A stretch of DNA of 64,000 nt from Minisyncoccota bacterium (GCA_041663025.1 JBAZRE010000001.1:5912-69911); one strand, 5' to 3'. Counted from the stretch's first letter, positions 1 through 64,000 are shown. Translations and numbers: made by a program. Notes: generated by a model from the sequence alone, not told the origin.

Positions 1-228
1 CATCGCAACATTGATGATGCCGTAGGCACCGAAGATGATCACGAGACCGATGATGCCCCAGAACATCGCCTTGTGACCCTCCTCGCGCTTCGTTGCGTCC
101 CCTGCATGCGCGACAAACTCAAACACGCCCCAGAGGAAGACGACAAAGGCACCCGCGGAGAGAAGCAGAATAATCGGATTGATAATCTGCGTGACGACCT
201 TGTCGAGAAATGAGTTGAGAACGGGCAT
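1..228 (-). CDS. pilin-like small membrane protein, paralog 1 of tandem array; partial, with the C-terminus beyond the window start
   Basis: Reverse-strand ATG at 226-228 translates to MPVLNSFLDKVVTQIINPIILLLSAGAFVVFLWGVFEF...EGHKAMFWGIIGLVIIFGAYGI. This is the same two-helix motif (…FLWG…EG….WGIIG…) as the downstream paralogs. It is not in the ORF track because it runs off the window edge. Confidence 0.5.
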   Translation of the reverse strand, partial: MPVLNSFLDKVVTQIINPIILLLSAGAFVVFLWGVFEFVAHAGDATKREEGHKAMFWGIIGLVIIFGAYGIINVAM

Positions 229-232
229 TTAA

Positions 233-610
233 CTAGCCACCGACTCGGACACCAGCTGAAGGAGTGCCGCCAGCGGGACCGCTGCCACTACCGAAACCAA
301 CTGTGCCGGTTAGGATGTTCACCAAGCCCCAAACTGAAACCATCACAAAGAAACCAATAAGACCCCAAAGCATAAGATTCTTGCCCTTCTCCTTTACATC
401 AGCAGAATTAGCACCGAGGATGAAGGTCTGGAATGCGCCCCAGAGGAAGACGATGAAGGCGACGGCGAAGAGAACCGGGACGAAGACGTTGTTGATGGTG
501 TTGATAATAAACGAGCCAACGTCTGCGATGTTATTGATAGCGGCGAGAGAGACGAGCGGCACGGCGAATGCAGCGAGCGATATTGCGGTGAGGGTAAGGG
601 CTTTTTTCAT
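233..610 (-). CDS. VirB2/TrbC-like (T4SS-pilin-like) small membrane protein, paralog 2
   Basis: 125 aa with an N-terminal signal peptide (MKKALTLTAISLAAFAVPLVSLA). It then has two hydrophobic helices separated by a short charged loop (VPVLFAVAFIVFLWGAF…EKGKNLMLWGLIGFFVMVSVWGLV). The motif is shared with the neighbouring ORFs. Confidence 0.55.
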   Translation of the reverse strand: MKKALTLTAISLAAFAVPLVSLAAINNIADVGSFIINTINNVFVPVLFAVAFIVFLWGAFQTFILGANSADVKEKGKNLMLWGLIGFFVMVSVWGLVNILTGTVGFGSGSGPAGGTPSAGVRVGG

Positions 611-690
611 AAATTAAGTAATGATTAACAGGATAATTGTAGCTTTTCTGTAGACGTGGTCAATGCGGCTGTGGGCGGTGTGTGGATAGT

Positions 691-1875
691 CTAATTTTCT
701 ACCGGAGTATTCGAACAATCGCAACCTGTTGATGGATCATATGTGCACCCATCATTTATCATTTTACAATCAAGTTCCGCTTGTGAGGCTCCGCTATCGT
801 TGCTGCTGCTGGTATCAGTGATACATGTTCCTGGAGTACCTGAACACACGAGGCCGAGGCTGGTATTACATATGTCGTATTGTCCGGTACCACAAGTGCT
901 TCCAAGCGAACCGTCATTGACTGTGTAGCCTGTGAGACATGTACATAGCGACCAATCGTATTTATTGCCAGCTATTGATTCACAATCTATTATCTCGTCT
1001 CCTGTTGCCGCACATGTGTCAGTGCCACTTCCACTACTGCCAGTATTGGTACTGCCTGTTCTGGCACCACACCTAGAAACTCCAGAACTGGTAGCTCCGC
1101 ATGCTAGAGAGGGATCACAGTAATCATCATTGCAACACAGGGCTCCTTCTGTACCATCTCCACTGGCGCAATCAGCGCCACTTCCACTTCCACTTCCAGT
1201 ATCGCCACCACCGGTATTGGTACTGTCGTCGCAGTTACCAAAGATGGTACATGAGGTTACGCCTGGAGCGCAGACACTTTTAAAGAACGTGCCGCAAGTG
1301 ATAGTGCCACCACCTCCGCCACCAGGAACTACATAAACTTTTTGTGCGTTGCTATATGCGGTAGTTGCCGAGATGCATTGGCTGCTTGAACTGCCATATC
1401 GCGTACACGTAGTATTCTTGCTGGTATATAGATTATTCATCTGCGTCTGGGCTGCAGAGGTTCCACCGGGTCTCTGAGCACAGATTCCGTCAAAAAGTGA
1501 CCCGCCACTGCAATATCCGCTTGCACATTCAGGATGCGAAGTGCATGCTCCGCCGTTTGCCGTCAAGTCACCACCGCTGCTACCACCGATCGTCGGGAAT
1601 GGAGGCGCGTTCGTCGCGGAATTTAGGCCGAGTGTGCCCATGAAGATCTGCACAATGCCCCAGACTGAGAAGAGGAGCACAAAGCCGATGATGCCGTAGA
1701 GAGTGAAGACACGTCCTTCTGCACGTTTCTTTTCGTCGTCTGCTCCCTTGATGAAATAATTATAGATACCCCATAGGAATACGATGAACGCGACAGAAAT
1801 CAACGTTGGCACAAGAATGCCGTTGATAATGCCGGTTATGCTATTGGCATAGCCTTGGATGTAGGATGCGTCCAT
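691..1875 (-). CDS. pilin-like N-terminal domain fused to a long Cys/Gly/Ser/Thr-rich extracellular extension
   Basis: 394 aa. Residues 1-90 carry the same two-helix motif (VPTLISVAFIVFLWGIYNYF…EGRVFTLYGIIGFVLLFSVWGIV). Residues about 90-394 are low-complexity with about 38 Cys spaced irregularly, including GSGSGSG runs, suggesting a disulfide-rich surface domain. Confidence 0.5.
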   Translation of the reverse strand: MDASYIQGYANSITGIINGILVPTLISVAFIVFLWGIYNYFIKGADDEKKRAEGRVFTLYGIIGFVLLFSVWGIVQIFMGTLGLNSATNAPPFPTIGGSSGGDLTANGGACTSHPECASGYCSGGSLFDGICAQRPGGTSAAQTQMNNLYTSKNTTCTRYGSSSSQCISATTAYSNAQKVYVVPGGGGGGTITCGTFFKSVCAPGVTSCTIFGNCDDSTNTGGGDTGSGSGSGADCASGDGTEGALCCNDDYCDPSLACGATSSGVSRCGARTGSTNTGSSGSGTDTCAATGDEIIDCESIAGNKYDWSLCTCLTGYTVNDGSLGSTCGTGQYDICNTSLGLVCSGTPGTCITDTSSSNDSGASQAELDCKMINDGCTYDPSTGCDCSNTPVEN

Positions 1876-1886
1876 AGAGGTGATGA

Positions 1887-2282
1887 TTAATACGACGTCG
1901 GGAGCGGCGGTGCGTAGTATCCCGAGAGACCGAATGTGTTGGCGACGACATTCACTAGCCCCCAGATAGAGATCATGATGGCGAATGCGACGATGCCCCA
2001 GAGGACAAGGTGATGGCCCTCCGCAACCTTCGTGGTGTCGCCATAAGAGAAGATGTATGCCTTCGCGATGCCGTAGAGGAAGACGATGAAGGCGATGGCG
2101 AAGAGTACCGGCACCAAGACCGAATTGATAATGTTGAGAATCATCCCACCGAGCCAGCAGATGTAGACATCACAGCCATCGATGGAGGAGTAGCTCAAAT
2201 AGCCGCTAGCTGCAAAAGCGAACGACGGAGCAAGAAGTGTTGTAAGAATAAGTGCGGCACGGGTTATTTTTTTCATTTTCAT
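1887..2282 (-). CDS. VirB2/TrbC-like small membrane protein, paralog 4
   Basis: 131 aa with a signal peptide (…LLAPSFAFAAS). It has the conserved core IINSVLVPVLFAIAFIVFLYG…EGHHLVLWGIVAFAIMISIWGLV. Confidence 0.55.
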   Translation of the reverse strand: MKMKKITRAALILTTLLAPSFAFAASGYLSYSSIDGCDVYICWLGGMILNIINSVLVPVLFAIAFIVFLYGIAKAYIFSYGDTTKVAEGHHLVLWGIVAFAIMISIWGLVNVVANTFGLSGYYAPPLPTSY

Positions 2283-2302
2283 ATAGTTAAGAGTATGACA
2301 CG

Positions 2303-2587
2303 TTATGCGCCTGGTGCGATACCGAGCGTGGATAACAATAGATTCACGAATCCCCAGACCGAGAAGAACACCACCATCCCGAGAATGCCCCAGAAGATGA
2401 AATCTCGGCCCTCTTTCAACTTCGCTTCATCGCCATTATTACTGAAGAAGAAATACTTCACCACACCCCAGATGAAAACTGCGAAGATAAACGCGCCGAT
2501 GAGCGGTACGACAATTGTGTTGATGATGCCGATAATGCCGGTCGTGCCACTGCCGACAAATTGAGCGAAGGTCATACTAGCCGCCAA
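2303..2587 (-). CDS. VirB2/TrbC-like small membrane protein, paralog 5
   Basis: 94 aa with no signal peptide. Core is IINTIVVPLIGAFIFAVFIWG…EGRDFIFWGILGMVVFFSVWGFV. The probable start is the internal Met of MTFAQF. Confidence 0.5.
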   Translation of the reverse strand: MAASMTFAQFVGSGTTGIIGIINTIVVPLIGAFIFAVFIWGVVKYFFFSNNGDEAKLKEGRDFIFWGILGMVVFFSVWGFVNLLLSTLGIAPGA

Positions 2588-3014
2588 GCGCCTGCACAGT
2601 CGCGGTGATACTTATTTGTATCGCCTGCGCTCCGAGCAATATCAAAGCACCAATAACTGTCCAGAGGAGCGCCTTGTGTGCCTCTTCTAGTTTCCCAGGA
2701 TTACCCTGCGCCTTGACATACAAGAAGCCGATATACACCAACATCAAGACAACGGCGATAGCGCCGATACGCACGACGAATTTCAGAATGCTATTGAGGA
2801 AGGCCATTAAGCAATCGCCATTACTGCTACTGCAGTCAATACCTTTGAGCGGGTTGATGAGGGTGACTTTTTGTCCTGAAGCGCCAATTATCGGTGTGGG
2901 CGTTACAGGCTTACCCGTCACTGGTGTTATCTGCGCGAGCGCCGTAGGCGCGAGCGTGAAGAAGACAAAAATGGCAATTAGAGCAAGACGCATACTATTG
3001 TTGCAAGAGTGCAC
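2577..3014 (-). CDS. TrbC/VirB2-type pilin-like protein, paralog 6 and the most canonical copy
   Basis: 145 aa. Signal peptide MRLALIAIFVFFTLAPTALA is followed by a mature region ending IAVVLMLVYIGFLYVKAQGNPGKLEEAHKALLWTVIGALILLGAQAI. This helix, small polar loop, helix layout is typical of conjugative VirB2/TrbC pilins. Confidence 0.55.
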   Translation of the reverse strand: MHSCNNSMRLALIAIFVFFTLAPTALAQITPVTGKPVTPTPIIGASGQKVTLINPLKGIDCSSSNGDCLMAFLNSILKFVVRIGAIAVVLMLVYIGFLYVKAQGNPGKLEEAHKALLWTVIGALILLGAQAIQISITATVQALGG

Positions 3015-4302
3015 TCAAGGATCGCCCAGCAGAGACAAGAGCGGTGGCGAGACCTGAACGACCGGTTATCACATCTGTAATCATACCCGAGAAGACCGCG
3101 TCAGTGTCAGCTGGCATTGGGGACAGCCAACCGCTTGTGTAGAGTGCTTCAGCATACGCAACTGCAGCGACAGGGTCGGCGGGAGCTGTCGCAAGCTCGC
3201 TCAATACTGCGGGCGCGAGCCCTGTGAGAGATGCCGCTTCTTCCTGCGCGACAGGATTAGTTAGAAGTGCGGCGGCCTGATATGCACCAGAAGAGTTCTG
3301 CGTACCAATAGGGATCATAAAAGCATATACGAGACCATACGCGCTCTTTGTCGTGGCGATTGCCGGCTGTGGCACAGGCGAAACACCGAAATCAAGATTT
3401 GGATTTGCTGATACAAGGAAGTGCGCTTCAGAAGCGTAGCCGAGATAGAGTGCGAGGTCTCCTGCAAGAAATGCTTGTTGAGAATCACGCAAAGAAGCAT
3501 TCCAGGTGTACGAGATCTTCGATGGGTCGGCAAATTGTGTGTAGAAGCCGAGCACGGCTTCTCCAGCTGACACACCACTCCCTGTGGCGGATCTCTCGCC
3601 AAGATTTGCACTAAGAACACCGCCTGAAGAATATGAAGAAAGCTGGGTGCCCGTTTGTAGGAATAGTGTTGAGAGTATGCCGCGACTATTGTGAACATTG
3701 TCATAAGAACCGAGAGCAATGAGCCCGCGTGTGATTTGTCGTGCTGGTGTCATGATCGCCACATTCGGCACAAGACCAGTGAGAGCCTCCCAGGTCGTCG
3801 GCGGCTTCGCGATACCGTCAGAAGAGAGGATTGTGTGGTTTGAGAATAGGACAAGCGGATCGACAAGAAATGGTATGCCGTAGTATCCGTCTGCTGCCGC
3901 GAAGAGCTGTCCTTCTCCAACGAACGTGCTGGTGAAGGTTGCCGCGGAGAGCGTGGTCGACGGTATTGGAGTGATGAACTTCGCAATGGTATGCAGCTCC
4001 TCTTGTGAAGCGAGCACTAGGTCAGGCCCCGATCCTGTCGCTATCGCTGTGGCAAGGTCATTGGGAAGAGTTGCGGGATCTTTTTGCACATACGAAACAT
4101 TCTTGAGACCCGTCTCGGTTTTTGCAACGGCCGTGAGCATGCTCTGCATTCCCTCTTTCGGTAACGTACCCCAAATAACAACGGTGCCGACTGCACTTCC
4201 ACCGCCACTGTTACTCGTGTAGGTTGCGAAGACAAATAGACCGATAATGGCGGCGAGACCGAAGACTCCGAACAAAATGCCTTGGAAGAGAGAGACTTTC
4301 AT
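2995..4302 (-). CDS. extracellular solute-binding protein (ABC transporter SBP family 1-like), N-terminally membrane anchored
   Basis: 435 aa. N-terminal TM helix, then VVIWGTLPKEGM…VSYVQKDPATLPNDLATAIATGSGPDLVLASQEEL, which resembles the sugar-binding SBP_bac_1 N-terminal region. Confidence 0.55.
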   Translation of the reverse strand: MKVSLFQGILFGVFGLAAIIGLFVFATYTSNSGGGSAVGTVVIWGTLPKEGMQSMLTAVAKTETGLKNVSYVQKDPATLPNDLATAIATGSGPDLVLASQEELHTIAKFITPIPSTTLSAATFTSTFVGEGQLFAAADGYYGIPFLVDPLVLFSNHTILSSDGIAKPPTTWEALTGLVPNVAIMTPARQITRGLIALGSYDNVHNSRGILSTLFLQTGTQLSSYSSGGVLSANLGERSATGSGVSAGEAVLGFYTQFADPSKISYTWNASLRDSQQAFLAGDLALYLGYASEAHFLVSANPNLDFGVSPVPQPAIATTKSAYGLVYAFMIPIGTQNSSGAYQAAALLTNPVAQEEAASLTGLAPAVLSELATAPADPVAAVAYAEALYTSGWLSPMPADTDAVFSGMITDVITGRSGLATALVSAGRSLSALLQQ

Positions 4303-4305
4303 AAG

Positions 4306-4884
4306 TTATGGTGCTGTAAAAATAATCCCGTAATGGTGCGACCCCGCGCGAAATGACTTCACCTTATGGAAGCCGTTATTGATAAAAAATTCTTCTGCTT
4401 CATGTTCAGTTATGACCTGCTCTGGCGAAGGACCCATACCCCCGTAACTTCCCGCCCAGTCGACAAGAAGGAGTTTGCCGCCAGACTTCAGCACGCGCCG
4501 TATCTCCTTCAAGAGTTCTGGGCGATTCTCGATTTGGAAGAGCGTGTTCGCAAGCATGACGGCATCAAGCGATGCGTCGCGCAAATGGGTGCCACCAAGC
4601 TTTTCGATATCGCCCCAAACCGTATCGATGATGCTCCGATGGTGTTCGTGTGAATTGAGTTTGAGATGCTTCAACACATCTTCTTGTATATCGATTGCGT
4701 AGACTCTGCCACTTGGCCCGACTACTGCAGCAGCCATGCGCGAATAGTGACCAGAGCCGGCGCCAAAGTCTCCCACCTGCATCCCCTCGCGGAGTCCTAG
4801 CTGGAGGACGTTATCTCTAGGAGAACTGAATTGCGCATCCATACCATATAAAATACCACGTGCGGCCCGCAGCGGGCCGCACAA
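4306..4884 (-). CDS. class I SAM-dependent methyltransferase
   Basis: 192 aa. SAM-binding motif I VGDFGAGSGHYS, an acidic loop AIDIQED, and post-motif LKSGGKLLLVDW. Confidence 0.75.
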   Translation of the reverse strand: MCGPLRAARGILYGMDAQFSSPRDNVLQLGLREGMQVGDFGAGSGHYSRMAAAVVGPSGRVYAIDIQEDVLKHLKLNSHEHHRSIIDTVWGDIEKLGGTHLRDASLDAVMLANTLFQIENRPELLKEIRRVLKSGGKLLLVDWAGSYGGMGPSPEQVITEHEAEEFFINNGFHKVKSFRAGSHHYGIIFTAP

Positions 4885-4961
4885 TCAACAGAATATGCTA
4901 TTCTCTACCTCAGAGGCTTACAGGAACTAAACGGCTAGACTGCTCTTTTAAGGAGGCAACT

Positions 4962-5156
4962 ATGACAGTCATGAGTGAGGAGGAAAAACGGAAAAGAAAT
5001 GAGGATCTCCGCATTTTTGCCAGCACCGGTGTAGCGTCGCCGGAGCTACAAGCATCAAACGACGCTTTCTTTGCGAGAAATCGTGAGGCAATCAGAGGAG
5101 CGCTCAAGATGCTGGGAGAACATCCCTACGCAGACAAAATCCGATGGTCGAACTAG
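4962..5156 (+). CDS. small hypothetical protein (about 64 aa)
   Basis: Strong SD AAGGAGG sits 5 nt upstream of ATG at 4962 (MTVMSEEEKRKRNEDLRIF…). It is followed by a hairpin plus T-tract terminator. Confidence 0.4.
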   Translation: MTVMSEEEKRKRNEDLRIFASTGVASPELQASNDAFFARNREAIRGALKMLGEHPYADKIRWSN

Positions 5157-5171
5157 TTTTTACTTACGTGC

Positions 5172-5206
5172 AAATGCCCGGCAATTCCCCGGGCATTTCT
5201 TTTTTC
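5172..5206 (+). terminator. rho-independent terminator
   Basis: Hairpin ATGCCCGG-loop-CCGGGCAT followed by TTCTTTTTTC. Confidence 0.6.
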
Positions 5207-5210
5207 ACAC

Positions 5211-5253
5211 TATATCCTTATCTTTACCGACCGGTATTTATAAGAATATTCAG
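5211..5253. repeat. copy-specific direct repeat A1, downstream flank of wHTH-Cas2-like paralog 1
   Basis: ATATCCTTATCTTTACCGACCGGTATTTATAAGAATAT. It is about 80 percent identical over about 40 bp to 5857-5898, and 22 of the first 23 bp match. Confidence 0.6.
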
Positions 5254-5256
5254 AAG

Positions 5257-5838
5257 TTACATTAAAGGAAGATTGAATTGCCGTCGGATACCTTTGTCGT
5301 GTTCTATTGTATCGGCAATTGCATAGAGAACATCCTTGCCTATCTTGAGTTCTGCTTTGAGAAGCGCGATGAAATCTTCGCAATCATAAGGGTAGACCCA
5401 CACGCTATCTTGCAAACGAATGAATCCCACTTCGCGCATGACAGCACATAGACGAAATCTCACTCGGCTTCTTCGTTCGGGAATATCAAAGACGATCATT
5501 CGCCAACGCTTATCCCATTTCTTTTTCTGATTTTTAATAGCAACTTTCGCTTGCTCAAGAGCAACCGCTTTGCGTCCTTTAGGGGTTATTCGTAAAAATT
5601 TCTTTCCATCTCTTTCGATCCAGTTTGCATATCCTTTGGTTACTAAACGCCCTGATGCTGACTTTGCTCTATACCTCAAGTTGTATTTTTCATTTGGCAG
5701 GTATTTGAGGAGCTGAAGAGCGTTCCCAGCGATGGCCGCTACAGCAATAAAGCCCGTGACTGCGACGGCAGCAAGCACTGCGTGTTGGATATCTCGTTTC
5801 TTTTTCCTTTTTCGCGACGTCTCTTCGAGTTTCCCCAT
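5257..5838 (-). CDS. membrane-anchored winged-helix + Cas2-like domain protein (paralog 1 of 3)
   Basis: 193 aa with a basic N-terminus (RKRKKKR) and a TM helix (AVLAAVAVTGFIAVAAIAG). A wing-like segment (GRLVTKGYANWIERDGKKFLRITPKG) follows. The C-terminus WRMIVFDIPERRSRVRFRLCAVMREVGFIRLQDSVWVYPYDCEDFIALLKAELKIG matches the Cas2 pattern by eye (lVvYDI…rR.k..k.l..yG.RvQnSVFec…). Confidence 0.5.
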   Translation of the reverse strand: MGKLEETSRKRKKKRDIQHAVLAAVAVTGFIAVAAIAGNALQLLKYLPNEKYNLRYRAKSASGRLVTKGYANWIERDGKKFLRITPKGRKAVALEQAKVAIKNQKKKWDKRWRMIVFDIPERRSRVRFRLCAVMREVGFIRLQDSVWVYPYDCEDFIALLKAELKIGKDVLYAIADTIEHDKGIRRQFNLPLM

Positions 5839-5856
5839 TAGCTTTAGTATAAATCA

Positions 5857-5898
5857 AATATCCCTATCTTTACCGACCGATTGTTGATAAGGATACGA
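5857..5898. repeat. copy-specific direct repeat A2, upstream flank and promoter region of paralog 1
   Basis: ATATCCCTATCTTTACCGACCGATTGTTGATAAGGATAC. It contains the dyad ATCAA…TTGAT. Confidence 0.6.
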
Positions 5899-6104
5899 CT
5901 TCTAGGACGACGCCTCAGATGAGCGAATTGGCTTTTATTTGGTCCGCCAATTTATTTCAAAACAAAGGGAGTATTTGTTCGGAATATTCCATCTCGAGAA
6001 TCGAAGCCAGAAAAATTGGAACTTGTTATCACTAATCTTCCCGAAACCAAATCGGTTAAGCGTGAGCTCAATATCTATGGACATACTTGATTTATCGCTT
6101 ATTT

Positions 6105-8573
6105 CTATAACGCAACCATGCTGGCGATGGAGTCGCCCTCGCGCATTTTCATGATACGGACACCTTGAGTCGCGCGGGAAAGGAGCGAAATTTCGGCAAC
6201 GCCGGTACGGATCACTTGCCCTTTCTTAGAAACAACCACCAATTCTTCTTCTTTGAGGTCGCCAATGCAGACGCGCGCGCCGATAATCTCGCCCGTCTTC
6301 GGTGTCACTTCTGCCGTCTTGATACCCGAACCGCCGCGACCCTGCACCTTATATTCAGACAGCTTGGTGCGCTTGCCGTAACCTTTGCTCATAATAACGA
6401 GGAGTGATGCCTCACGAGCCGCAGCAGAGATCACTTCTGCCGAAACCACCTTGTCGCCTTTCTTCACACTCATACCGCGCACACCACCGGCCGTGCGCCC
6501 CATCTCTCGCACTTCTTCAGTATCAAAACGAATCGACTGCCCTTTTGACGTCACGATCGAGACCGTGTCGCCCTCTGCCGAGTGATGAGCCGAGACGAGT
6601 TTGTCACCCTTCTTCAAATTAATCGCGATGATGCCCGAGCGCCGCACATCAGAGAACGACTTCGCTGCCACGCGCTTCACGACACCCTGCTCGGTTACAA
6701 AAACGACTGACGAGGCATCGAGCGCAGCACCCTTCGGCACCGGCAATATTGAAGTAACATTCTCATCTCCCGCGAGCGCGAGGAAGTTCATAATGCTCTT
6801 GCCCTTGGTCGCGCGCTTCCCTTCTGGGATCTCATACATCTTGAGCTGATACGCCTTACCGAAGTCGGTGAAGAAGAGAAGATCGCTGTGTGCATTGGTC
6901 ACCAAGAAGTGCGTCACAATGTCTTCTTCTTTGGTCGCGATATCCACGACACCCACACCGCCGCGCTTCTGCTTCTTATATTCATTTGGATTCGTTCGCT
7001 TGATGTATCCGCCCTGCGTCATAATCAACATCGACTCTTCATCGGGCACAAGATCTTCGGCAGAGATGTTCTGCACGCCGCCACGTACAATCTTGGTACG
7101 TCGATCATCGCCATATTTCAGGGCGAGCTCGGCGAGTTCGCTCTTCACCACCGCGAGAATCTTCTTGGGCGAGGAGAGAATTTCTTTAAGCTTCTTGATG
7201 AGTGTCTGAATCTCGGAGAGCTCGTCTTCTAGCTTCTTGCGTTCGAGACCAGCAAGCTTCGAGAGACGCATTTCGAGAATCGCCGCTGCCTGCAAAGATG
7301 AGAAGCCAAATTTCTTTTGGAGCGCGAGACTCGCCGATGGCACATCAGCCGCCTTCTTAATGATCGCAATAACCTCGTCGATATGATCGAGCGCCTTGCA
7401 GAGCCCGAGGAGGATGTGCTCGCGCGCCTCGGCCTGTCGCAGATCGTATTCAGTACGGCGCTTCACTACCTCTTGACGATGATGCACAAAGTGACCGAGC
7501 ATTCCCGAGAGTGAGAGCATCTCTGGCACGCCGTCGACGAGCGCGAGCATGTTGTAGTGGAAAGTGCTCTCGAGCTCGGTGTGTTTATACAAAGCGTTCA
7601 AGACCGCCTGCGGATGCGCTGTGCCTTTGAGCTCAACCACCACTCGAATGTCTGAGGTAGACTCGTCACGCAAGTCGCGAATGCCTTCAAGCTTCTTCTC
7701 TTGTACCAGCTCAGCGATACGCGTGATGAGCTCGCTCTTATTCACGCGATATGGAATAGAAGTGATAACGATGTGAGTGTCCTTTTTGCTGTCGTCAATA
7801 ATCTCCGCTTCGCCGCGCACTACCACCGGCCCCTTGCCCGAGCCATAGGCATGTTTGATATCCGTATGATTAAAGGCGACGCCGCCGAGCGGGAAATCGG
7901 GGCCTTTTACAAACTGCAGAAGATCATCGGTTGTTGCATCAGGATTATCGATAAGATGTATCGCTGCGGCAACAACCTCGCGGAGATTGTGTGGCGGGAT
8001 GTTCGTCGCCATGCCGACTGCGATGCCGAGCGTACCGTTCAAGAGCAGGTTTGGCAACGCTGCAGGGAGGACGTTCGGCTCTTCGCGCGTCGCGTCATAG
8101 TTTGGATTCCACGCGACAGTCTCCTTCTCAAGATCAAGGAGGAGCGCTTCGGCGATGCGCGACATCTTCGCCTCGGTGTAGCGCATGGCGGCTGGACTAT
8201 CGCCGTCAATGGAGCCGAAGTTGCCCTGCCCAAGCACGAGCGGATATCGGTGAGAGAAGTCTTGCGCCATCTTCGCCATCGAGTCGTAGACCGCAACATC
8301 GCCGTGCGGGTGATATTTACCGAGCACTTCGCCGACGACTGTGGCCGACTTGCGGAATTTCGCACCCGGCACGAGTCCCATGTCCTTCATCGCATAAAGG
8401 ATGCGGCGGTGCACCGGCTTCAAGCCGTCACGTACATCTGGTAGAGCGCGACTCGTGATGACAGACATCGCGTAGTCGAGATATGAAGTGCGCATCTCCG
8501 AGACGATCGGTTGATCAATGACGTTTGCCGCCACGATAGATACTCCTCCAGGATTTTTATCTTTTGAAGCCAT
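6105..8573 (-). CDS. gyrA: DNA gyrase subunit A
   Basis: 822 aa. N-terminal [33 protein letters not shown] with the catalytic Tyr region, and C-terminal beta-pinwheel repeats. Confidence 0.95.
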
Positions 8574-11230: not shown

Positions 11231-11825
11231 AGCGGGTATTCGCGAATTGGGTTGCGGATTCGATACCTTCGGTCGCGAAGAGGCACACGGACTCGGCAAC
11301 TTTTTTCATGACTTTTTTCACTATCGCCTCTTCACTCGGCTTCCACTTCCCTATCACATGCTTGATGACCTTCTCGTCACCTGAAACTTTCTTTGCCTGA
11401 TTCTTTTTGCCTGCTGCACTGATGCCGATGCGGATGCGCGCGAAGTTTTCAGTCTTGAGCGCGCGCATGATGCTCTCGACACCTTTGTGCCCGCCGCTCC
11501 CACGCCCAAACACCATTTTTATCGTCCCAAGTGGCAAATCTAAGTCATCATGAATCACGAGCAAGCTTTTTGCGGCTTTAGGCGACTTAACAAACGCACT
11601 CACTGCCTTCCCCGAGAGATTCATCATGGTCTCTGGCAAGACGAGTGTTGCGTTTTCTTCGTCAATCGCGCCTTTGCTTACGAGGGCATTGCTCGTTTTG
11701 TTGAAAGTAAACTCATCAAAGCTCTGGTTCTTAGCAACAAGCATGACTGCACTTCTGCCGGCGTTGTGTCGTGTCTTTTCGTATTCTTTTCCCGGATTCC
11801 CAAGCCCGACGATGATGAGTGTCAT
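11229..11825 (-). CDS. pth: peptidyl-tRNA hydrolase
   Basis: 198 aa. MTLIIVGLGNPGKEYEKTRHNAG…DDLDLPLG…GHKG. Confidence 0.9.
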   Translation of the reverse strand: MTLIIVGLGNPGKEYEKTRHNAGRSAVMLVAKNQSFDEFTFNKTSNALVSKGAIDEENATLVLPETMMNLSGKAVSAFVKSPKAAKSLLVIHDDLDLPLGTIKMVFGRGSGGHKGVESIMRALKTENFARIRIGISAAGKKNQAKKVSGDEKVIKHVIGKWKPSEEAIVKKVMKKVAESVCLFATEGIESATQFANTR

Positions 11826-11873
11826 GCGAGAATCGTATCACAAACTTGCATGCTGCAAACAGACGAGTACACT

Positions 11874-12467
11874 ATGCATATGTCTGACACTTGGAAGGGT
11901 CTGCTGAAGGATCTTTTCACGCTTGCACTCCTTGTTATTGTCGTTGTTATCCCGATTCGTGTCTTCGTCATTTCTCCTTTTGTTGTTGATGGTGAATCAA
12001 TGCATCCAACCTTTGAGAATCTCGACTATCTTATTGTTGACGAGTTTCTCTACATCTTCCAAACACCCGCCCGCGGTGATGTGGTCGTCTTCCGCTACCC
12101 AGACAATCCATCTATTTTTTATATCAAGCGCGTTATCGGACTCCCAGGCGAGACTGTCTCTATCAATAGAGGCGCGGTGACCATTATCAAAGCCGATGGG
12201 AGCGAGCTAACGCTAGCCGAGCCATACATTGTGAACGAAGACGCGACGTACACAAAAAACACTTCGCTCAACTCTGGTGAATATTTTGTTATGGGAGACA
12301 ATCGTCCGAACAGTTCTGACTCACGCATTTGGGGTCCATTGCAAAGGAAGAATATTATCGGTCGCGTCGACCTCCGGCTCCTCCCTATTTCAAAAAGTAG
12401 TTTCTTCCCAGGTGCAACGACTTATTCATCTATCACTGCAAGTTCGACAAAATCCCTTGCACCATGA
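11874..12467 (+). CDS. lepB: signal peptidase I
   Basis: ATG at 11874 (MHMSDTW…) is chosen over the longer ORF-track start. TM helix, then VVDGESMHPTF (Ser box), YIKRVIGLPGETV (Lys box) and FVMGDNRPNSSDSR. Confidence 0.85.
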   Translation: MHMSDTWKGLLKDLFTLALLVIVVVIPIRVFVISPFVVDGESMHPTFENLDYLIVDEFLYIFQTPARGDVVVFRYPDNPSIFYIKRVIGLPGETVSINRGAVTIIKADGSELTLAEPYIVNEDATYTKNTSLNSGEYFVMGDNRPNSSDSRIWGPLQRKNIIGRVDLRLLPISKSSFFPGATTYSSITASSTKSLAP

Positions 12468-14516: not shown

Positions 14517-14558
14517 CACTATTTATAACGGTCGTAGATACTTTTTGATATTACTTCA
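14517..14558. repeat. copy-specific direct repeat B1, downstream flank of paralog 2
   Basis: …TTTATAACGGTCGTAGATACTTTTTGATATTAC. The core ACGGTCGT..ATA.TTTTTGATA is shared with 15143-15170. Confidence 0.55.
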
Positions 14559-15132
14559 GACCGAAATGTTCGCGCAGATGCTTATCGTTTTCAATTTCTT
14601 CAACAACCATATACAACACAGCAGACCCAATCTTTAACTCTGCTTTTAACAATGCAACGAAATCCTCACAATCGTATGGAAAGACCCATACGCTATCCTG
14701 TAGACGAACGAAGCCAATTTCCTGCATAAGAATTCGCAATCGATCGCGTGTCTTGCGGCGACGCTCCGGCACGTCAAAGATAACCACGCGCCACCTGCCA
14801 TTCCAGCGGCGTTTTTTGGAGAGATCTAATTTCTTTTTCTCGAGTTCGAAAGTAAGTTTCTTCTGTCCCGCATCCGTGATTTGCGCATATGATTTGCCAT
14901 CCCTTTTTTGAAACGTAACAAGTCCGAGCACTGCAAGCCTCCCAAGTGCAGTACGGTATTGGTAACGTAATTTCGCTCGTTGTAACGGAGGTAGTTTCGC
15001 AAGCGCTCCCGGCAGACCAGGCGCTATGGCCGCGACAAGTACGACACCCGATAGAGCAACAGCGGCAAGCAAACCAGCTTGGACATTTGTACGTATTCTC
15101 TTTTTCTTCGCTCCTGATTCTACATTCCCCAT
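14551..15132 (-). CDS. membrane-anchored winged-helix + Cas2-like domain protein (paralog 2 of 3)
   Basis: 193 aa with a basic N-terminus, a TM helix (AGLLAAVALSGVVLVAAIAPG) and a wing segment (GLVTFQKRDGKSYAQITDAGQKKL). The C-terminus is WRVVIFDVPERRRKTRDRLRILMQEIGFVRLQDSVWVFPYDCEDFVALLKAELKIG. Confidence 0.5.
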   Translation of the reverse strand: MGNVESGAKKKRIRTNVQAGLLAAVALSGVVLVAAIAPGLPGALAKLPPLQRAKLRYQYRTALGRLAVLGLVTFQKRDGKSYAQITDAGQKKLTFELEKKKLDLSKKRRWNGRWRVVIFDVPERRRKTRDRLRILMQEIGFVRLQDSVWVFPYDCEDFVALLKAELKIGSAVLYMVVEEIENDKHLREHFGLK

Positions 15133-20590: not shown

Positions 20591-20649
20591 CATGTATCAA
20601 TTTTCATCCTATAGGATAAGAATTGAGACAACTTACTTTCACAAGTCAT
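20591..20649. promoter_or_regulatory. repeat C1: palindromic TCCTATAGGA-centred site upstream of 19726..20502 and downstream of paralog 3
   Basis: CATGTATCAATTTTCATCCTATAGGATAAGAATTGAGACAACTTAC. It is a near-duplicate of 21225-21276. Confidence 0.55.
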
Positions 20650-21227
20650 AGGAGTCGGAAGTGTTCCCGAAGTCGGCGATCTGATTCAAGTGCCTCGGCA
20701 ACGAATGAGAGCATTTCGCCCGTACCGCTCTTGAGGTGTGCGCGGACAAGCCCGATGAATTCATCACAGGGATATGGATATATCCAGACACTGTCCTGAA
20801 GCCTCAAGAAACCAGCGCCCATGAGAAGAGTCCGTAGTTGCGAACGAGCTCGCCTGCGCTTCTCGCGGATATCAAACATAACGACGCGCCACTTGCCATC
20901 CCAGAATACTGGTGCAGGAATGCGGTATTCGTTTGCGTACACCGTTCCAATCACCGCACGACCCTTTTCGGTCAACGAGGCATTGCGGTGTCCATACTTT
21001 CCTGATGTCTTTACGAGACCGGCGTACTCGAGACGGGTTATTGCCTGCGTGATACGACGGTACAAATCTTTCCGATTCGCCACACCACGATCAAGTTTTT
21101 TCAGAATGGTCAGTACCCTCGGAGCGACGAGTGCGACACCGAGCGCCCCACTCACTGCTAGCGTTCGCAAAATGAGATTGCGCATTGGCAGATATTTCCC
21201 GCGCGTTTCCGTCCGCATTTTCTTCAT
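20646..21227 (-). CDS. membrane-anchored winged-helix + Cas2-like domain protein (paralog 3 of 3)
   Basis: 193 aa with a hydrophobic helix (LAVSGALGVALVAP) and a recognition helix plus wing (ITRLEYAGLVKTSGKYGHRNASLTEKG). The C-terminus is WRVVMFDIREKRRRARSQLRTLLMGAGFLRLQDSVWIYPYPCDEFIGLVRAHLKSG. Confidence 0.5.
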   Translation of the reverse strand: MKKMRTETRGKYLPMRNLILRTLAVSGALGVALVAPRVLTILKKLDRGVANRKDLYRRITQAITRLEYAGLVKTSGKYGHRNASLTEKGRAVIGTVYANEYRIPAPVFWDGKWRVVMFDIREKRRRARSQLRTLLMGAGFLRLQDSVWIYPYPCDEFIGLVRAHLKSGTGEMLSFVAEALESDRRLREHFRLL

Positions 21228-40056: not shown

Positions 40057-40118
40057 CCGTAAGGTGACACCTTACGGTTTTTGGTATTTCCCCAGCTCCG
40101 TAAGGTGACACCTTACGG
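40057..40118. repeat. two tandem REP-like hairpins (family 1) upstream of the RAYT gene
   Basis: CCGTAAGGTGACACCTTACGG at 40057-40077 and again at 40098-40118. Confidence 0.85.
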
Positions 40119-40155
40119 TTTCCCTCTAGGGCATGCTAGTATTAGCTCATTACAT

Positions 40156-40827
40156 ATGACAAAGAGAGATGCCCCGTTTGCTGTCGGCGAGTGGTACCAC
40201 TGCTACAACCGTGGTATTGAAAAGCGTACCGTGTTTGAAGATACCAGGGATTATCATCGCTTTCTCGAACTCCTTTACTTGGCAAATGATGAGTTCCCTC
40301 TCCGGCGTGAAGATATCGGCACATATAAATTTGAAGAAATATTAAAGATTCCCCGCGGCAAGAAATTGGTCGCCATTGGAGCGTTCTGCCTGATGCCTAA
40401 CCACTTCCATCTGGTGCTGAAGGAGATCTCGGAGGGAGGTATCACCGCATTTATGCGAAAAATCGGAACATCCTATACTTTGTATTTTAATGCACGGCAT
40501 GAGAGGACTGGAAACCTCTTCCTAAAGCCATTCCGATCCCTTCATGTATCTAACGACCGTTACTTCCAACACCTCATTAACTATGTTCACTGCAATCCAG
40601 CAGCTCTCTATGAACCTGGGTGGAAAACTAACCAGGTTGTGGACCCTCAATTCTTGGGAGAACAGATTGCAGCTTATCCATACTCAAGTCTTGGTGCCCA
40701 TACTGGTGCACACCCATCGACCAGACCCATCCTGGATGCAGAAGTATTCTCCATAACGCATACTGTTCGGATACAAAAGATGCTGCAAGAAGCACGACAG
40801 TATTACGCTGATTCTAATCTTCCGTAA
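40156..40827 (+). CDS. IS200/IS605-family Y1 (HUH) transposase-like protein, REP-associated (RAYT-like)
   Basis: ATG at 40156 (MTKRDAPF…) is preferred. The N-terminal part of the longer track ORF overlaps the REP hairpins. WYHCYNRG…, the HUH motif CLMPNHFHLVL, and the catalytic Tyr region YVHCNPAA. Confidence 0.75.
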   Translation: MTKRDAPFAVGEWYHCYNRGIEKRTVFEDTRDYHRFLELLYLANDEFPLRREDIGTYKFEEILKIPRGKKLVAIGAFCLMPNHFHLVLKEISEGGITAFMRKIGTSYTLYFNARHERTGNLFLKPFRSLHVSNDRYFQHLINYVHCNPAALYEPGWKTNQVVDPQFLGEQIAAYPYSSLGAHTGAHPSTRPILDAEVFSITHTVRIQKMLQEARQYYADSNLP

Positions 40828-40898: not shown

Positions 40899-41241
40899 CG
40901 GACTGAACTAAGCGATCGCCCGCCAACATCTGCGAAGTTGTGGCGGGAGGAAAGTCCGAACATACTCCTGCCGTAAGGCGGGAAAATAGGTAGCGGGTAA
41001 CGCCCGTCGTCCGTGAGGATAGAGGTGACCACAGAAACGTCCTGAGCGAAAGTGAAGGAATTCCCTCGTGGAATACGCCCGTCGCGAGATGGGAATGCAA
41101 CGACTAAATCCTTACCCGTATGCAAGGCCGTGCCCGACCACACTTCGAGTGTGACGGGAGTGACGCTTAAGGCGTTGAGTAATTAACGGCTCAGATAAAT
41201 GATCGCTCACGACAGAATTCGGCTTATCGGCTCAGTCCACA
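40899..41241 (+). ncRNA. rnpB: RNase P RNA (bacterial type A-like)
   Basis: P1 pairs GGACTGA (40900-40906) with TCAGTCC (41232-41238). The P4 5' strand is GGGAGGAAAGTCCGAACA, the P4 3' strand is ACAGAATTCGGCTTATCGG, and the internal sequence GCGAAAGTGAAGG is also present. Confidence 0.8.
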
Positions 41242-41248
41242 AAGATGC

Positions 41249-53973: not shown

Positions 53974-54048
53974 GTCCGCCCCCTTGGACTCGAACCAAGA
54001 ACCGCAGAGGTATAAGCTCTGTGCTCTAACCAATTGAGCTAGGGGCGG
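53974..54048 (-). tRNA. tRNA-Ile with genomically encoded UAU anticodon
   Basis: Reverse complement CCGCCCCTAGCTCAATTGGTTAGAGCACAGAGCTTATACCTCTGCGGTTCTTGGTTCGAGTCCAAGGGGGCGGA. U8 is present, the D-arm is Ile/Met-like, the anticodon loop is CTTATAC, and the T-loop is TTCGAGT. Confidence 0.7.
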
Positions 54049-55989: not shown

Positions 55990-56025
55990 AAAAGATACTT
56001 CACCATAACACTAAAACACTAATTT

Positions 56026-56427
56026 GTGGAGGCGCGGGGAGTTGAACCCCGGTCCGAGAATGTTTATGAAAGCGATTCTACGACGCATAGTCAGCGTTAG
56101 ATTTAAGGCAGGATGCGAGGAACGCAGACGAAACCATTCCTGCCCGATCCCTTATTTAAATGTGCCGAGCGGGAGGTCGGACATCGATTCAACAGATAAT
56201 TCCGCCCCTGCCTCCGGCTGTAGAAACCCGAGAGGAGAGACGTCGCGCTAGGCGTGTGCCGTTAGGCTGCGTAGGCGAACGCGAAGTCAGACACACCGAA
56301 GTATGGAGACTTCACGCTTGCAAGAGTGTTCTTGGCAAGTTTGATTTCCCGCCAGTTTTAAGTGTTAGCGGGAGAGCACTGCGTCGCACGTCTTTCAAAG
56401 AACAGACCGTCAAAGCCGGTCACCCCC
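56026..56427 (-). ncRNA. ssrA: tmRNA (transfer-messenger RNA)
   Basis: The 5' end is GGGGGTGACCGGCTTTGACGG and the 3' end is …GGACCGGGGTTCAACTCCCCGCGCCTCCA, giving a tRNA-Ala-like acceptor with G3-U70 and a T-arm. An internal tag frame ends …FAFAYAA-TAA. It lies directly downstream of smpB on the same strand. Confidence 0.8.
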
Positions 56428-63120: not shown

Positions 63121-64000
63121 CTATTCGTACCGCAATGCATCAATAGGATTCTTGCGCGCGGCTTGGCGGGCGGGATAGATGCCGAAGGCGATACCAGAGA
63201 TACCTGACACCGCGAGCCCAAGGATGACGGCAGAGATCGGGAAAGCAAATACCCAGCCGATAGAAAAGAAGTTGGACAAGACAAAAGACACAAGGCCAAC
63301 AACCCCAGCACCGAGGGCAATGCCGATAACACCACCCGCGAAGGTTAGCAGCACCGACTCGATAAGAAATTGTTGCAAGATATCGTTATCCGTCGCGCCG
63401 ACCGCCTTGCGAAGGCCTATCTCGCGAGTGCGTTCAGTAACAGAGACTAGCATGATGTTCATGATTCCGATGCCGCCAACGATAAGTGATATAGAAGCAA
63501 TCGCGGCTAAGAATATGGTGAGAATCGACATGATATTACCTAGAGTATTAAGCGTCTCGTCCATAGATGTAACCATGAAGTCGTCTTTCGTCGGATCCGT
63601 AATCTGGTGGGATGTTCTTAAAATAGAGATAATCCTTGTCTTGACGAACGCTGTGTCGTACGTTGGATCAATCTGGATGTTCAGCTCTTGATAATAATCA
63701 ATACCGCGAATTTGCTTTTGTCCAACAGAAATCGGAATCAGTGCATACCCGTCCATACTAAACATTCCGGAACCCTTCGGTTCTAGAACTCCAATAACAC
63801 GGAAAGTAATGTCTTCGAAACGAACAGTCTTCCCGACAGGTTCAATGTTATACCCGAACAGGTCTTCTGCTAACTTCGAACCAAGGACGACAACGTGTTT
63901 GTATGCAGTCTCATCTGCACTGGTGAACCCATACCCACTGGAGAAATTAAGGTTTGTCATCCTGAATATGTTTGCTGTCGTCGCAATCCAAAGAGTCGAC
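63121..64000 (-). CDS. ABC transporter permease (FtsX/MacB-like), partial; N-terminus beyond the window end
   Basis: The C-terminal four-TM FtsX-like domain ends …ARKNPIDALRYE. The ORF is open at the window edge. Confidence 0.75.
   Translation of the reverse strand, partial: STLWIATTANIFRMTNLNFSSGYGFTSADETAYKHVVVLGSKLAEDLFGYNIEPVGKTVRFEDITFRVIGVLEPKGSGMFSMDGYALIPISVGQKQIRGIDYYQELNIQIDPTYDTAFVKTRIISILRTSHQITDPTKDDFMVTSMDETLNTLGNIMSILTIFLAAIASISLIVGGIGIMNIMLVSVTERTREIGLRKAVGATDNDILQQFLIESVLLTFAGGVIGIALGAGVVGLVSFVLSNFFSIGWVFAFPISAVILGLAVSGISGIAFGIYPARQAARKNPIDALRYE

Follow-up and report, generated by a model that had tools for sequence, protein, structure and literature searches.

Introduction

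Patescibacteria carry a monophyletic type IV secretion system (T4SS) that is derived from the MPF-FATA type (PMC12102498), and tandem arrays of genes for VirB2-like pilins are known from their genomes. In the survey by Quinonero-Coronel et al. (2025, Microb Genom; PMC12102498) 2,417 of 3,035 assemblies of Patescibacteria were found to contain VirB4 and 1,948 to contain VirB2-like pilins; only 1,135 of the latter have a pilin gene close to virB4. The survey reports 441 arrays of 2-11 pilin genes with a mean identity of 25%; Microgenomatia and Saccharimonadia have the most of them. The virB4 gene of Paceibacteria tends to be close to dnaA. Here we analyze an array of six pilin-like genes at one end of a 64,000-nucleotide stretch of DNA from Minisyncoccota bacterium (GCA_041663025.1 JBAZRE010000001.1:5912-69911); this whole stretch is called the window below. 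The array belongs to the published kind. Like the arrays in the survey it consists of tandem, co-directional genes on the chromosome of a member of the same phylum, which match PF18895 with weak similarity to PF04956, and its six adjacent genes fall within the range of 2-11 tandem PF18895/PF04956 genes that defines such arrays. The paralogues are 23-45% identical here, compared with the mean of 25% in the survey. Unlike the virB4-near genes on which that study focused, this array is located in a Kaiserbacteria-like member of the Paceibacteria, away from any T4SS gene. What we add is incremental, namely a fixed and ordered set of six genes that always stands behind a gene for a solute-binding protein (SBP), an internal promoter and a plastic fourth position. 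The accessible portions of the published accounts, PMC12102498 among them, mention neither the SBP partner, nor positional orthology, nor multi-domain fusions, and those of PMC12102498 report no internal promoter.

The only array of this kind with genetic data is that of Southlakia epibionticum ML1. Transposon sequencing showed that six PF18895 genes, SEML1_0014-0019, are essential for the epibiotic growth of this organism (Wang et al. 2023, Cell; PMC10633639); they adjoin genes for VirB6-like, PrgI and VirB4 proteins. The ML1 array resembles the present one in its six tandem PF18895 genes. Its proteins have 103-185 amino acids (aa) and two of them match PF04956 weakly. Unlike the array described here, that of ML1 lies inside the T4SS cluster and is accompanied by neither an SBP nor a methyltransferase gene. 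Furthermore, as read from tabulated domain positions, a signal peptide would appear to fit into every one of the six ML1 proteins, whereas three of the present ones have no room for it.

The pilins of the Agrobacterium T pilus, RP4 and F (VirB2, TrbC and TraA) are also small proteins with two hydrophobic helices, a short charged loop and, often, a signal peptide. Their mode of action, in which a membrane pool of subunits is extracted into a fiber, serves as our working model. Unlike these proteins, the pilins described here are assigned to a monoderm-type (MPF-FATA-derived) system, in which six non-redundant paralogues replace one major pilin; they have no significant profile similarity to Agrobacterium VirB2, and searches with them gave no significant match to solved pilins. 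A second likeness is to Mbov_0395 and MMCAP2_0565 from integrative and conjugative elements of Mycoplasma (NCBIfam NF045849), which are likewise small, pilin-like components of a conjugation system of the monoderm type. The present proteins score below the cut-off of that model, as relatives and not members, and their genes are in the chromosomal core, whereas the Mycoplasma genes are mobile by the name of the model. Tandem VirB2 paralogues of Bartonella and Anaplasma phagocytophilum share with our case several divergent copies, dependence on a host and a small genome. According to work cited in PMC12102498, the role proposed for these copies is antigenic or host-range variation; unlike them, the array analyzed here has a fixed order and strict orthology across 41 species, which argue for a division of labor.

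Results

Six pilin genes with a common core

The window comes from the chromosome of a Kaiserbacteria-like Patescibacterium (class Paceibacteria). A public contig (ENA ERZ27249449 k141_1297846, hereafter L001) has 1 mismatch to it in 10,610 nt and runs 5.9 kb past position 1. The array consists of six co-directional open reading frames (ORFs) on the minus strand between window positions 1 and 3014. A preliminary description, made from the sequence of the window alone, had listed these six consecutive ORFs, and all of them exist where it placed them. In the order of transcription they are as follows.

Pilin 1, 2577..2993, minus strand: 138 aa, predicted signal peptide with site ALA/Q; PF18895 35.4 bits, PF04956 26.3 bits.
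Pilin 2, 2303..2575, minus strand: 90 aa, no signal peptide; PF18895 35.6 bits.
Pilin 3, 1887..2282, minus strand: 129-131 aa, predicted signal peptide with site AFA/A, Cys pair before helix 1; PF18895 22.4 bits.
Pilin 4, 691..1875, minus strand: 394 aa, no signal peptide; PF18895 32.8 bits at residues 9-78.
Pilin 5, 233..610, minus strand: 125 aa, predicted signal peptide with site SLA/A; PF18895 38.3 bits.
Pilin 6, the last gene, 1..228, minus strand, partial in the window: no signal peptide; PF18895 39.2 bits.

The likely start of pilin 1 is ATG 2993, 1 bp past the SBP stop (the ORF reaches GTG 3014), and that of pilin 2 is ATG 2575 (the ORF reaches TTG 2587); the public gene call for pilin 2 begins 1 bp past the pilin 1 stop. 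Pilin 6, already recognized as partial, is complete on L001 (10383-10655) with 90 aa and is followed there by a terminator-like hairpin. The lone nucleotide difference between the window and L001 results in a Gly to Cys change in the C-terminal tail of pilin 2, near 2310-2320 (STLGIAPGA versus STLCIAPGA).

The family assignment is based on PF18895 (T4SS_pilin), a curated model that was built independently of the window. It matches all six genes with E values from 7e-10 to 1.3e-4, and five of the six score above its cut-off of 26.6. The matches are co-linear and span 60-70 of the 71 model positions; the five genes above the cut-off cover positions 6-71. Pilin 3 reaches only 22.4 bits, yet it scores 122 bits against a profile of its own paralogues and is orthologous in 41 of 41 loci. 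The same model matches 125 of 126 orthologues from 21 other genomes (E <= 1e-3). Among the NCBIfam models NF045849, which describes the Mbov_0395 pilin-like conjugal transfer protein, is the best match for every one of the six over nearly its full length (E 4e-9 to 7e-5); the scores of 22.4-36.0 bits are below its cut-off of 40. With PF04956 (TrbC/VirB2) the pilin 1 gene gives an E value of 8.9e-6 under a cut-off of 27.9 bits, pilin 6 scores 16.6 bits and the other four genes have no match; 16 of the 126 orthologues match at E <= 1e-3, the best with E 3e-7. Judged by the curated threshold, the six genes are relatives of PF04956 at best and not members. The preliminary description had predicted a T4SS_pilin/TrbC-like assignment; this is borne out by PF18895 in all six cases and by the near-threshold PF04956 score of the gene adjoining the SBP. 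A profile built from the six genes matches 20,289 cluster representatives (50% identity clusters, E <= 1e-3). A search for a seventh copy in the window found none.

A core of about 60-85 aa can be aligned across the six proteins. It consists of a hydrophobic helix, a charged loop and a second hydrophobic helix; in each protein two hydrophobic 19-mers, seen as Kyte-Doolittle peaks, flank the loop. The loop is rich in Gly, Asp, Lys, Glu and Arg and has the aligned consensus G-x-[DN]-x-x-K-x-x-E-G-[HRK]. An AlphaFold2 model of pilin 5 shows helix 28-68, a turn and helix 70-103 with a predicted local distance difference test (pLDDT) score of 82-94 in the core, and a disordered Gly-rich tail. The paralogues were described earlier as divergent and as sharing a two-helix core; the alignment agrees with both statements, and in BLASTP comparisons the six window proteins are 23-45% identical.

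Three of the proteins (pilins 1, 3 and 5) have N-termini that look, by inspection, like signal peptides, with a K/R n-region, a hydrophobic h-region and an AxA-type site. The other three have none: even in the longest possible ORF only 15-25 residues precede helix 1, which leaves no room for one. The earlier count of three genes with and three without a signal peptide holds on this inspection. Genes of the two types alternate along the array. The idea that this alternation reflects a triplicated ancestral gene pair was rejected: between-position identities show that pilins 3, 4 and 5 cluster together and that pilin 1 is an outlier.

The individual positions have features of their own. Pilin 1 contains a Pro/Thr linker and a Cys pair and is the most divergent paralogue (core identity of 17-24% to the other positions); the first slot also has a variable N-terminal extension after the signal peptide. 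Pilin 4 begins with a pilin core (about residues 1-85, nt 1621-1875) and continues into a 309-aa extension (nt 691-1620), which is rich in Gly, Ser and Thr and contains 28 Cys. The C-terminal extension of this slot is only about 10 aa long in most species; in 6 of 42 loci, this genome included, it has 154-378 aa with 6-28 Cys. Some pilin 4 orthologues match the Cys-rich modules EB, Dickkopf_N or DUF7107, and orthologues of pilin 4 are annotated as 'pilin' at NCBI. Pilin 5 is the most conserved paralogue, with orthologues that are 62-84% identical, and is a candidate for the major subunit. Orthologues of pilin 6 are 61-82% identical in 41 of 41 loci.

The six genes are orthologous by position

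Related loci were obtained by scanning one genome per species with the SBP. This gave 58 loci, nearly all of them from metagenome-assembled genomes (MAGs) of Kaiserbacteria/Paceibacterota, with SBP identities of 60-76% and down to 25%. A pilin-core profile detected pilin genes directly downstream of the SBP in 55 of 55 loci that have downstream sequence. Exactly six pilins in the same order are present in 41 loci, or 42 when L001 is counted. In these 41 loci the best window match was the protein of the same slot in 41, 33, 41, 40, 41 and 41 cases, respectively, and the mean core identity is 0.55-0.75 within a slot versus 0.17-0.43 between slots. Since orthologues in the same slot are far closer than paralogues, the duplications predate these species and all copies have been kept in order throughout a whole bacterial family. 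This strict positional orthology argues for six specialized subunits and not for a variation cassette.

The neighborhood is also kept in order: a gene with a metallo-beta-lactamase fold, a small ORF, gyrA, in some cases a PaaX_M-like gene, then the methyltransferase, the SBP, the six pilins and convergent genes. The block from the methyltransferase to the pilins is intact in one locus with a different upstream context (L045), and the two most distant loci (L058 and L059, 25% SBP identity) have the SBP-pilin pair without the methyltransferase. Two picks from an unrelated search fell within this block again. Within the block the gaps are 1-26 bp, apart from a spacer of 80 bp before pilin 5. From the SBP through the six pilins they measure 1, 1, 20-26, 11, 80 and 4 bp, which corrects the range of 2-20 bp given previously; across loci the distance between the SBP and the array is 1-10 bp.

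Arrays of other lineages have three or six pilin domains fused in their third or fourth gene. Proteins in which 3, 4 or 6 PF18895 domains are naturally joined in one chain reach 555 aa with 12 predicted transmembrane helices. Examples are P0312 (L060 1777-3435), P0361 (L061 76-1743), P0403, P0270 (L062 5786-6694), P0271 and P0272. The ORFs of P0312, P0361 and P0270 are uninterrupted in the DNA, and the fusions are located within pilin arrays where the context could be seen (P0312, P0361, P0270 and P0272). The repeats within one fusion protein look nearly identical when the sequences are read, which suggests recent internal duplication.

A conserved promoter precedes pilins 5 and 6

The 80-bp spacer before pilin 5 (611-690) contains two conserved elements.

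Sigma-70-like promoter TTGACC-16 nt-TACAAT, 636..663, minus strand: scores 10/12 in a consensus scan.
Conserved motif TATCCACA, 681..688, minus strand: between the pilin 4 stop, which it closely follows, and the -35 hexamer.

Of 42 related loci 40 have the promoter in the form TTGACN-16-TANA[AC]T; within this motif-bearing group the spacer has 16 nt in 39 and the ATG is 26 nt past the -10 hexamer in 32. The second element, TATCCACA, occurs as TATCC[AC]CA in 39 of 42 loci and is a possible operator. It was also considered as a genome-wide motif and rejected as such, with 3 matches in the window versus 1.2 expected.

A solute-binding protein and a methyltransferase precede the array

Two further minus-strand genes and a non-coding element complete the block.

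Membrane-anchored family-1 extracellular SBP, 2995..4302, minus strand: 435 aa, with an N-terminal transmembrane helix and no lipobox Cys.
Class I S-adenosylmethionine-dependent methyltransferase, 4306..4842, minus strand: 178 aa; Methyltransf_11 64.9 bits.
Conserved element upstream of the methyltransferase ATG, 4843..4889, minus strand: GTTGAYT, a GC-rich hairpin (4859-4883) and TGnTAnnTT.

The order of transcription is methyltransferase, SBP and then pilins 1-6. The preliminary description was right about these co-directional neighbors; its wording that the operon continues into them was not, as both come first in transcription.

The SBP scores 74.3 bits with SBP_bac_8 and 61.2 bits with SBP_bac_1, above the cut-offs of 27 and 26, and shows weak matches to maltose/maltodextrin-binding proteins among the PDB sequences (E about 4e-4). 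Its anchor (residues 1-30) is among the best-conserved segments of the protein, with 0.86 versus 0.79 overall. No permease of the BPD_transp_1 type and no ATPase of an ATP-binding cassette (ABC) transporter adjoins the SBP gene or was found among the scanned window ORFs; the sole permease among them is of the MacB/FtsX type (63121-63960). The SBP is a conserved partner of the array, with its gene close against that of pilin 1. An AlphaFold2 model of the SBP, computed with 42 close orthologues, had a mean pLDDT of 49 and was discarded as too poor for a fold search.

The methyltransferase gene is upstream of the SBP in 56 of the 59 loci L001-L059, with 43-100% identity, and is probably the first gene of the operon. 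ATG 4842 is a likelier start for it than TTG 4884, and 4859-4883 is a conserved non-coding hairpin. This hairpin was flagged as terminator-like; in an RNAalifold analysis of 33 loci it has 8 pairs, 6 of them with compensatory double changes, between invariant flanks. The TGnTAnnTT motif resembles an extended -10 and ends 6-7 nt before the ATG. We infer that the element may combine a terminator for the preceding unit with an overlapping extended -10 promoter, from which a near-leaderless operon mRNA would start. The -35-like and -10-like hexamers in it are 27 nt apart, which is too far for a canonical promoter. An Rfam search of window positions 1-6200 found nothing.

Chromosomal surroundings

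Database entries from a 'Candidatus Paceibacterota' MAG, named 'hypothetical protein' or 'extracellular solute-binding protein', are identical to proteins of the window, and the nearest related loci are from Kaiserbacteria MAGs. The array is located in a conserved chromosomal core beside gyrA, with no phage or toxin context. The window also contains a class I tRNA synthetase gene, lepA, murJ, a class II ribonucleotide reductase gene, recG, ftsH, bipA, ftsA, ftsZ, lepB (11550-12467) and tsaD, together with eight tRNAs, RNase P RNA and tmRNA. On L001 the hairpin 3' of the array is followed by a convergent unknown gene and by Band_7-like, rbfA, infB and PaaX_M-like genes. The largest unexplained ORFs near related arrays were considered as T4SS genes and rejected; they encode TopA, PNPase, FtsH, a P-type ATPase, a PMT glycosyltransferase and ComM-like proteins.

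One PaaX_M-like gene lies directly upstream of the operon, here and in several related genomes. The window contains three such paralogues, 34-47% identical, at 5257-5838, 14551-15132 and 20646-21227, all on the minus strand, and a fourth lies just outside it on L001 (15261-15842). Each has 193 aa with a basic N-terminal tail, one transmembrane helix and a PaaX_M (Cas2-like) domain (PF20803, 60.6 bits); a family of membrane-tethered regulators is possible. Between the first of these genes and the methyltransferase, on the opposite strand, is a 64-aa ORF (4962-5156, plus strand) that has no Pfam match, is annotated on the public contig and has a terminator-like hairpin 3' of it at 5172-5198.

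Other observations concern the RNA genes. A tRNA-Ile with the anticodon TAT is encoded at 53974-54048 (minus strand). In most bacteria AUA is read by a CAT tRNA with a lysidine modification, and a UAU-type tRNA-Ile is uncommon. The tmRNA (56024-56427, minus strand) scores 96 bits with Rfam and was missed by ARAGORN; class A RNase P RNA (40900-41242, plus strand) scores 110 bits. Beside the latter a 248-aa ORF (40081-40827, plus strand) shows a weak IS200-like Y1 transposase domain (26.5 bits), the sole hint of a mobile element in the window.

Discussion

A probable set of specialized pilins

We favor, with some confidence, the view that the six genes are a fixed set of specialized VirB2-like (PF18895) pilin paralogues of the Patescibacteria T4SS. 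The preliminary description had left open a set of major and minor pilins or a diversified adhesin family; positional orthology and the internal promoter fit the former better. VirB2-type pilins, as in the F and T pili, have both termini facing outward. The pilins of the array would likewise insert into the cytoplasmic membrane with the termini out and the charged loop in, a topology that we propose because the hydrophobic segments and the K/R/E-rich loops fit it. Three of them would be trimmed by signal peptidase, of which the window encodes a homologue, LepB. A platform of the VirB4/VirB6/VirB3 type, encoded elsewhere on the chromosome, would then extract and assemble the pilins into a heteromeric fiber or conduit that crosses the envelope and serves during contact with a host cell. 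In support of such a platform, VirB4 is listed for five of the six related assemblies that bear the same cluster (Table S1, PMC12102498). Pilins 5 and 6 could be the bulk subunits, because they have their own promoter and the highest conservation. Pilins 1-4 would be specialized subunits of low copy number whose outward, lineage-variable extensions mediate surface contact; in this genome these would be the N-terminal extension of pilin 1 and the Cys-rich C-terminal extension of pilin 4. The co-transcribed SBP may act at the same surface and either serve as receptor or capture protein for a glycan or solute that comes from the host or take part in assembly; this is the least supported step.

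A number of results weigh against this assignment. The window ORFs that were scanned, all with 238 aa or more, include no VirB4, VirD4, VirB6 or type IV pilus ATPase, in agreement with the preliminary description. Its suggestion to look for VirB4, VirB6 and VirD4 beyond the window edge led only to convergent housekeeping genes: the 5.9 kb past the window start contain no T4SS genes, and no T4SS ATPase or channel genes are present within 10 kb of the array in the 58 related loci. Thus neither the scanned window ORFs, nor the flank, nor these loci link the array to virB4, virB6 or prgI as in the T4SS clusters of other Patescibacteria. With no T4SS gene near the array, the link to this system rests on the naming of the family and on other lineages. 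Remote homology searches point in the same direction. Profiles of the six paralogues and of 42 sequences per position were compared by hhalign with VirB2/TrbC sequences (five, from Ti and Ri plasmids and an Acetobacter plasmid); with such thin profiles the probability did not exceed 3.5%, and the best case, a co-linear 61-column alignment of pilin 1, was not significant (P = 0.03). A profile of the six pilins found only chance matches to G protein-coupled receptors among the PDB sequences (E about 0.07), and a Foldseek search against PDB, which was uninformative, gave no significant match. The tie to classical VirB2 therefore rests on near-threshold TrbC matches (one of six genes, 16 of 126 orthologues) and on the shared architecture, and that to T4SS function on other Patescibacteria. 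The multi-domain fusions are awkward for a classical pilus of extractable monomers. A 2025 review treats the Patescibacteria pilus as still hypothetical, with no PF18895 filament demonstrated (PMC12857230). Finally, the conserved adjacency of the SBP could partly mirror a generally conserved gene order.

Alternative explanations

The main rival to the set of T4SS pilins is a hetero-oligomer of defined stoichiometry that stays in the membrane, for example a ring or channel of hairpins with two transmembrane helices that acts as a T4SS stalk or pore or as a partner of the SBP. We regard it as unlikely overall, and the fusions of 3, 4 and 6 domains make it worth taking seriously. Uninterrupted single-chain proteins of 3, 4 or exactly 6 domains inside arrays speak for such a structure, as does the strict retention of all six genes in a fixed order; an unusually conserved transmembrane anchor of the SBP is also consistent with it. 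Moreover, Gram-positive-type T4SSs are generally free of pili, and a T4SS pilus has never been seen in Patescibacteria (PMC10633639, PMC12857230). However, domains fused via outward linkers could still enter a VirB2-type filament, and the repeats of the fusions look recently duplicated and not like counterparts of the six old paralogues. The long, variable, Cys-rich extracellular extensions and the separately promoted, conserved gene pair fit a fiber of major and minor subunits better. The distance from any T4SS gene raises another alternative, which we consider improbable: the six proteins and the orphan SBP, perhaps with the methyltransferase, may form a surface or uptake module that works independently of a T4SS, so that 'T4SS pilin' would be a mere label. 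The block is never beside T4SS genes in 58 loci, and it persists in an altered context (L045) and, with 25% SBP identity, in L058 and L059; the scanned window ORFs include no sugar ABC permease to serve the SBP. One related assembly with the cluster is listed without VirB4 (Table S1, PMC12102498); it is an incomplete MAG. PF18895 genes of other Patescibacteria, however, are located inside the T4SS cluster and are essential together with it, and in 1,135 of 1,948 assemblies a pilin gene is close to virB4 (PMC10633639, PMC12102498). The module would also require hairpins of two transmembrane helices to act as a binding-protein-dependent transporter, for which we know of no precedent.

The divergence of the paralogues (23-45% identity) and the strong variation of slot 4 and of the N-terminal extension in slot 1 between species could be explained by a cassette of interchangeable pilin versions for evasion of recognition or for switching between host strains, an idea that has been offered for Patescibacteria arrays (PMC12102498). 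Yet in 41 species every slot is occupied by the one-to-one orthologue of the corresponding gene, and orthologues are far more alike than paralogues, which points to old and non-redundant genes. An array of interchangeable paralogues would vary in number and order, whereas all 42 loci, L001 included, have six genes in the same order. No repeats or recombination signatures were noticed, though no search aimed at them was made. Altogether a variation cassette is very improbable. Least credible of all is the explanation that the six genes encode unrelated small membrane proteins, such as holin-, bacteriocin- or immunity-like ones, which match PF18895 through their hydrophobic composition. They are indeed short hairpins of two transmembrane helices; they show weak, non-significant Pfam matches to other membrane families and no significant structural or sequence match to solved pilins. 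Hydrophobic composition would hardly account for co-linear PF18895 matches in six genes and 125 of 126 orthologues with E values down to 7e-10. A holin-like or otherwise unrelated family had been named beforehand as one outcome that would overturn the pilin assignment; the pilin proteins have no PHROG match at all, to a holin or any other phage family, and the location in a conserved chromosomal core does not suggest a phage or toxin origin.

Biological implications

The Patescibacteria are a large share of the uncultured bacterial diversity and live attached to other microbes. The T4SS with its pilin array is among the few systems shown to be essential for this lifestyle. The old, non-redundant and ordered paralogues argue against simple antigenic variation and for a multi-subunit structure. 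The gene pair with its own promoter and the slot with lineage-specific exposed extensions are candidates for major, minor and contact subunits, and the coupling of the array to an orphan SBP offers a handle, via its ligand and its interaction partners, on the question of uptake versus recognition. It is conceivable, although doubtful, that in Kaiserbacteria-like Paceibacteria the methyltransferase, the SBP and the six pilins form one device, in which a fixed heteromeric fiber built by a distantly encoded T4SS is combined with an SBP that recognizes a host glycan or captures host solutes. If this were true, a secretion-type pilus would have been repurposed for acquisition, and the recurrent number of six, found here, in Southlakia and in the six-domain fusions, would mirror a structural unit in its assembly.

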